Positions 28,740 to 29,314 of a DNA stretch of 64,000 nucleotides are shown here, piece by piece. The position numbers and the translations under genes were made by a program. The notes under the pieces are model-generated. The model did no database searches. It saw nothing but the letters and a program-made list of their open reading frames with translations, and had not been told where the DNA came from. The number at the start of each line of letters is the position of its first letter. Position 1 is the first letter of the stretch. Source of the DNA: Mayamaea pseudoterrestris (Eukaryota); NCBI GenBank assembly GCA_027923505.1, contig BROI01000021.1, positions 1 through 64,000 on the forward strand. The letters run 5' to 3'.

Positions 28740-29314
28740 ATGGCTCGAACAAAGCAAACAGCTCGCAAATCAACTGGTGGCAAGGCTCCACGAAAGCAGC
28801 TAGCCACTAAAGGTGCGATGCAGTCTGTCGGCGCTCATAAAAATGTGACAAACAAACTCACATGATTTCTACATGAAACTACAGCTGCAAAGAAGAATGC
28901 TCCGCAGGCTGGAGGTGTCAAAAAGTAAGTTTGGATGCTACATAGATCCTCATTCTTCGGACATTGCACTGTGAAGGCGTTTACATCTCAAACTCCATAT
29001 TTCATTATTTCTGCAGACCCCATCGCTATCGCCCAGGAACCGTTGCTCTGCGAGAGATTCGTCGATACCAAAAATCAACTGACCTTTTGATCCGCAAGCT
29101 TCCATTTCAGCGGCTGGTGCGTGAGATTGCTCAAGATTATCGGACTGATTTGCGTTTCCAAGGGTCATCCGTGTTGGCACTCCAGGAAGCTTCTGAAGCT
29201 TACTTGGTTTCCTTGTTCGAAGACACCAATCTATGCGCTATTCACGCCAAGCGAGTCACAATCATGCCCAAGGACATTCAACTCGCCCGGCGAATTCGTG
29301 GAGAGCGATCATAA
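28740..29314 (+). CDS. H3: Histone H3 variant, 3 exons (28740-28812, 28885-28924, 29017-29314)
   Basis: Spliced product [45 protein letters not shown]...[17 protein letters not shown]...RRIRGERS is full length. Confidence 0.96.

Follow-up and report, generated by a model that had tools for sequence, protein, structure and literature searches.

A solitary, intron-bearing histone H3 variant with altered residues beside K27 and at K79 in a Mayamaea-type raphid pennate diatom

The histone H3 gene described here raises the question whether an H3 with substitutions next to K27 and at K79 is a variant with a chromatin role of its own, or a redundant copy whose residues have been free to change. The gene spans positions 28740-29314 of the window (the whole 64-kb stretch of DNA that was analysed) and consists of three exons, separated by two GT..AG introns, for a product of 136 aa (Table 1). 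The spliced coding sequence comprises 411 nt, i.e. 136 aa plus the stop codon, and has the same length as that of canonical H3; the GC content of both introns is below that of the window (49%). Exon 1 is translated into 24 residues, which are the same as in canonical H3 up to K23, and support for the three-exon model comes from exon 2, 8 of whose 12 residues are those of the canonical tail. Exon 3 matches the Pfam family PF00125 (Histone; E 1.1e-43, 148.8 bits, cut-off 26.4) and gives a gapless alignment with solved H3 chains in which few residues differ (E about 1e-56). Other ways of splicing the gene were considered and rejected: retention of intron 1 leads to an in-frame stop codon, skipping of exon 2 breaks the frame because 73 + 298 nt are not divisible by three, and 11 single-intron models with an open frame exchange the H3 tail for non-H3 residues. 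From the start codon to exon 3 no second stretch coding for RKS or ARK was found in any frame, the sole ARKS-type match inside the gene being the K9 ARKS of exon 1, and no alternative model gives back an ARKS motif lost from exon 2. An earlier sequence-only reading had described a full-length spliced H3 with two introns and intact K4, K9 and K36, which reads A25-K26-K27-N28-A-P-Q31-A32 and carries Y78-R79, S88 and S102; both the coordinates and the residues proved to be exact.

Table 1. Coordinates of the H3 gene, its altered codons and other genes in the window, with the variability of those positions at which the variant departs from the consensus of 109 full-length H3 sequences
Feature	Position	Strand	Description	Variability rank (of 136)	Variant residue among 109 H3s
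Exon 1	28740-28812	+	ATG, H3 residues 1-23, first base of codon 24		
Intron 1	28813-28884	+	72 nt, GTGCGA..CTACAG, phase 1, 42% GC		
Exon 2	28885-28924	+	40 nt, residues 24-36 plus two bases of K37		
K26 codon	28890-28892	+	AAG, exon 2	24	6/109
K27 codon	28893-28895	+	AAG, exon 2		
N28 codon	28896-28898	+	AAT, exon 2	6	1/109
Q31 codon	28905-28907	+	CAG, exon 2	2	1/109
A32 codon	28908-28910	+	GCT, exon 2	1	27/109
Intron 2	28925-29016	+	92 nt, GTAAGT..CTGCAG, phase 2, within K37 codon, 39% GC		
Exon 3	29017-29314	+	98 residues, histone fold, end GERS then TAA		
D59				10	41/109
Y78 codon	29138-29140	+	TAT, exon 3	26	19/109
R79 codon	29141-29143	+	CGG, exon 3	66	3/109
G86				3	52/109
S88 codon	29168-29170	+	TCC, exon 3	69	2/109
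S102 codon	29210-29212	+	TCC, exon 3	4	49/109
Alpha-kinase gene	29563-31761	+	Next gene downstream		
Copia-type ORF	3346-6303	+	Reverse transcriptase (RVT_2)		
PLP enzyme gene	45979-47214	-	Cys/Met-metabolism PLP enzyme; as cystathionine gamma-lyase-type gene, 45839-47175		
Helicase-nuclease ORF	51143-52582	-	AAA_12 helicase fused to REase_MTES_1575 nuclease domain		
NDC10_II ORF	60485-63013	-	842 aa		

Compared with the diatom-type H3 embedded in the database protein P0037, the variant is identical at 126 of 136 residues. The ten differences are R26K, S28N, A31Q, T32A, F78Y, K79R, S80T, A88S, A96S and G102S, and residues 1-25 and 33-77 equal those of the diatom-type protein. Since T80 and S96 also occur in other stramenopile-type H3s, the changes particular to the variant are those at positions 26, 28, 31, 32, 78, 79, 88 and 102. 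Position 102 tolerates change, as a solved H3.2 chain carries A there, and S102 is not unusual in view of its frequency among the H3s compared (Table 1). The tail encoded by exon 1 is canonical at T3, K4, R8-K9-S10, K14, K18 and K23, and K27, K36 and K37 are likewise retained. The residues altered in the neighbourhood of K27 are thus R26K, S28N, A31Q and T32A, and the proposal that the K27 recognition motif has been lost holds for these neighbours but not for K27 itself, which is still present together with A25, A29 and P30; the motif is therefore altered rather than missing. The predicted absence of two marks follows from chemistry: an asparagine at position 28 is no substrate for serine phosphorylation, and an arginine at position 79 can be neither methylated nor acetylated as a lysine.

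For stramenopiles, a preprint (bioRxiv 10.1101/2024.02.19.579948) defines H3.1 by A31-T32, G86-S-A-V-L90 and a C-terminal S, and H3.3 by T31-A32, S86-T-A-I-L90 and a C-terminal A, with other states at positions 31-32 being named "H3.4 and so on"; additional H3 variants are reported there for Discosporangiales, Dictyotales and raphidophytes. The variant has G86-S-S-V-L90 and a C-terminal S, the H3.1 state, whereas its Q31-A32 is neither AT nor TA. It shares with stramenopile H3.1 the length, the 126 of 136 residues mentioned above, G86-S-x-V-L90 and the C-terminal S, and differs from it by Q31-A32 in place of A31-T32, by R26K, S28N, F78Y, K79R, A88S and G102S, and by its two introns and solitary position. 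Identity with stramenopile H3.3 is excluded by Q31-A32, G86-S-S-V-L90 and the C-terminal S, and identity with CenH3/CENP-A by a tail that is canonical through K23 and by the 126 canonical residues. Going by the descriptions in that preprint, the variant resembles the additional stramenopile variants in that it fits the naming rule for positions 31-32 and is likewise lineage-restricted, although those variants belong to classes other than the diatoms; a diatom H3 combining K26-K27-N28 with R79 was not found described in the literature searched. The sequence-only reading had also pointed to introns as typical of replacement variants. Its architecture is as expected for that type, being, like that of replacement H3.3, solitary and intron-bearing and showing no histone stem-loop, but the H3.3 signature (T31-A32, S86-T-A-I-L90, C-terminal A) is absent. 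By its residues the variant is thus an H3.1-derived additional variant and not H3.3, despite the replacement-type architecture of its gene; judged by this architecture, which is no more than suggestive, deposition independent of replication is most likely. In many uncultured diatom-type H3 ORFs from ENA (P0027-P0034) the sequence is not that of H3 as far as about residues 20-37 and is canonical from there on. This pattern suggests that in other stramenopile H3 genes, with ARKS retained, introns lie where the variant has its intron 2 or close by.

The 64-kb window contains no H3 other than the variant and no H4 partner, and a search of 27500-30500 against Rfam, the histone 3' stem-loop included, was negative at E up to 1. 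No flanking repeats were found in 26000-32000, so that the gene is not obviously transposon-borne, and its introns rule out an origin as a retrocopy. The next gene downstream encodes a protein with a C-terminal alpha-kinase domain (E 4e-37); for the approximately 490 residues N-terminal to this domain, Pfam yielded nothing at E up to 0.001. Elsewhere in the window there are a Copia-type reverse transcriptase ORF, a helicase-nuclease fusion and an ORF with an NDC10_II domain, which we take to resemble Crypton-type elements. That the DNA comes from a diatom, as had been supposed, is borne out by a neighbour gene matching a named Mayamaea pseudoterrestris protein, i.e. one of a raphid pennate diatom. 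The Cys/Met-metabolism PLP enzyme encoded in the window is 97% identical to a named M. pseudoterrestris protein (11 of 359 residues differ in one exon), its next matches being from the diatoms Seminavis, Nitzschia, Cyclotella and Thalassiosira, and at this identity the window may stem from the other haplotype, from a different strain or from a sister species. For M. pseudoterrestris, a genome heterogeneity of 2.97% has been reported (PMC9724779).

We read the locus as a real, intact, solitary, non-centromeric, intron-bearing and H3.1-derived variant restricted to the Mayamaea-type raphid pennate diatom lineage, and we hold this to be somewhat more probable than an even chance. The intact frame, the consensus splice sites, the product of 136 aa with only 10 of 136 residues differing and the Pfam match all favour it. 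Such a variant would be expected to build a normal nucleosome, the H3 of which could carry neither S28 phosphorylation nor lysine methylation or acetylation at K79. Its lineage-specific changes lie beside K27, on the nucleosome face (F78Y, K79R) and at residues 88 and 102. With K-K-N instead of R-K-S, K27 would probably be a poorer substrate or reader ligand for E(z)/EED and chromodomains, and both the writing and the reading of K27me3 are probably lowered by this context, in which K27 is kept and the R-to-K exchange is conservative. The H3 patch 87-90 discriminates variants in the H3.1/H3.3 chaperone literature; as residue 88 lies within this patch, A88S might change the choice of chaperone, which we regard as a lead only.

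The best-surviving alternative is that the gene is a redundant copy of H3 under weak constraint, whether a young drifting duplicate or an incipient pseudogene, in which the changes have arisen without a designed function. We regard it as possible yet rather unlikely; evidence in its favour comes from the positions that have changed. These positions were compared among 109 distinct full-length H3s from the database matches, for which a recognisable N-terminus and a length of 130-142 aa were required; the 120 matches of the enzyme search were excluded, and the set is biased to stramenopile-like H3s. At ten positions the variant has a residue other than the consensus one; eight of them are among the 26 most variable of the 136, and the mean variability of the ten (0.36) compares with 0.096 in random sets of positions, a value of 0.36 being reached in none of 20000 permutations. 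Most of the changes thus sit at soft spots where H3 generally varies most, which undercuts the argument that their clustering at modification sites speaks against random decay; that argument of the sequence-only reading is not sustained. In addition, each single change turns up sporadically among unrelated H3s, although the full combination occurs in no other sequence of the 109-H3 set. What speaks against drift is, apart from a frame, splice sites and exact length that are all intact with so few residues changed, that K79R and A88S strike near-invariant positions (3.7% and 2.8% non-consensus residues among the 109 H3s), the only two of this kind to be changed, which points to more than drift at soft positions. 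K79R (AAR to CGG) and A31Q (GCN to CAG) moreover each require at least two base changes, which in an otherwise canonical protein hints at age rather than at a fresh copy.

The search for orthologues likewise bears on whether the variant has been maintained. Protein searches with exon 3 as the query, in a collection of representatives of 90%-identity clusters, revealed Y78-R79 in none of the 120 matches listed in the first search and in none of the 209 listed over both, each search covering at most 8000 candidates. R79 alone was found in three of the listed matches (P0072, P0123, P0143), and K79 is present in each of the four proteins that share a cluster with P0072; among 54 further cluster members there was none with Y78-R79, R79 or the KKN motif. 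The 90% clusters pool H3s of wheat, liverwort, the apicomplexan Porospora and MMETSP protists, and since they mix such different organisms, a variant that is 93-94% identical to canonical H3 may be hidden in the collection. A degenerate DNA pattern for A-Q-D-Y-R-x-D-L-R-F-Q matched two loci on metagenome contigs, L001:3-356(-) and L002:1350-1775(-). Their H3s are intronless and have unrelated, strongly rewritten tails (one lies on a 38-kb contig with 64% GC), and both were rejected as orthologues on these grounds; the combination of F78Y and K79R has therefore arisen more than once. The exon 2 peptide as a DNA pattern gave no match in prokaryote genome contigs, as expected there. The lack of an orthologue among the matches listed is compatible with a drifting copy and weakens the reading as a maintained variant, as do changes that mostly (8 of 10) fall on variable positions, as they would under relaxed constraint; taken together, we consider the orthologue negatives to be weak evidence.

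A further point counted on the side of drift is that the locus is covered by DNA or DNA-like contigs only, though contigs of this kind say nothing about expression. Two runs (X1, X2), which may be the source of the sequence, each yielded one DNA contig across the entire stretch without differences, and two others (X3, X6) yielded short pieces of low depth, one of which (28661-28890) continues through intron 1 unspliced; no joints occur in the runs covering the gene. At 90% likeness or better, X1 and X2 gave a single contig each; canonical H3 genes differing by more than 10% in DNA could account for this, but because of the filters applied it is no evidence. Besides these, X3 contains a 961-nt contig of low depth which matches the part of the gene coding for the H3 C-terminus over 31 nt (29247-29277) with one mismatch and then diverges, and which is probably another H3-like gene in the sample, non-canonical after R-I-R-G. 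The codon use of the variant is unbiased and lies at or below the genome background (GC3 of 0.441, the window's 22 long ORFs all being higher at 0.449-0.644), which may be read as giving no hint of very high expression but proves nothing. Both the unbiased codon use and the kind of contigs covering the locus count against the interpretation as a maintained variant, as they do in favour of drift. The word "histone" is absent from the main text and two supplementary files of the paper on this species' genome (PMC9724779).

Improbable in our view is a second alternative, namely that the gene encodes a specialised variant immune to H3K27me3, S28ph and K79me that resets chromatin in gametes, auxospores or another stage, convergent with Arabidopsis H3.10; a role in gametes or auxospores in particular is speculation. 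Changes on both sides of K27 and the loss of K79 are what such a variant would show, and marks at K27 and K79 exist in a pennate diatom. In Phaeodactylum, according to PMC4504042, H3 is acetylated and mono- and dimethylated at K79, and H3K27me3 is abundant and in wide use, covering about 14% of the genome and mainly transposons; an E(z) homologue is present (PMC4504042 and a table in PMC3145265). The review PMC3145265 does not deal with H3 variants, DOT1 or Aurora. Support also comes from mutants of R26, as H3R26C loses K27me3 in cis (PMC11183192, in which R26A and R26H were also constructed) and the authors hold there that EED-mediated allosteric activation depends on an arginine at -1 of the ARKS motif. 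Against this, K27 is kept in the variant, no exchange at position 26 could be more conservative than R26K, and the main text of PMC11183192 makes no mention of "R26K". K26-K27 is found among the matches listed in the fungal H3s of Cantharellus and Paxillus as well, so that special variants are not alone in having a K-K context. Finally, no conserved clade appeared among the matches listed, and the changes track the general variability of the family.

The comparison with Arabidopsis sperm H3.10 is instructive in both directions. A passage of the review PMC8566409, citing Borg et al. 2020, calls H3.10 immune to K27 methylation; like the variant it is non-centromeric and altered near K27, and the logic proposed for it, escape from PRC2 in cis, is the same as that suggested here. 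H3.10, as far as this passage describes it, is of independent plant origin, and its methylation immunity and sperm-specific deposition were shown experimentally, in contrast to the variant, which is known from sequence alone and in which the neighbours of K27 differ. In its fullest form the idea would be that a diatom H3 has independently evolved which cannot be marked in cis by PRC2, Aurora-type kinases and DOT1-type enzymes and which, deposited at a certain stage or under stress, would wipe H3K27me3 silencing, including that of transposons; we consider this very doubtful.

We therefore return to the reading as an intact, lineage-restricted variant derived from H3.1. As it stands, judging from the residues and the structure of its gene, it is one more lineage-specific, non-centromeric H3 variant. 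If the fullest form of the idea were true, the variant and Arabidopsis H3.10 would be convergent counterparts, in lineages separate for more than 1 billion years. An H3 escaping K27me3 and unable to be marked at K79 would offer a way into the question of how chromatin states are reset or protected in unicellular algae, and a freshwater model with a small genome would allow escape from K27me3 to be tested directly.
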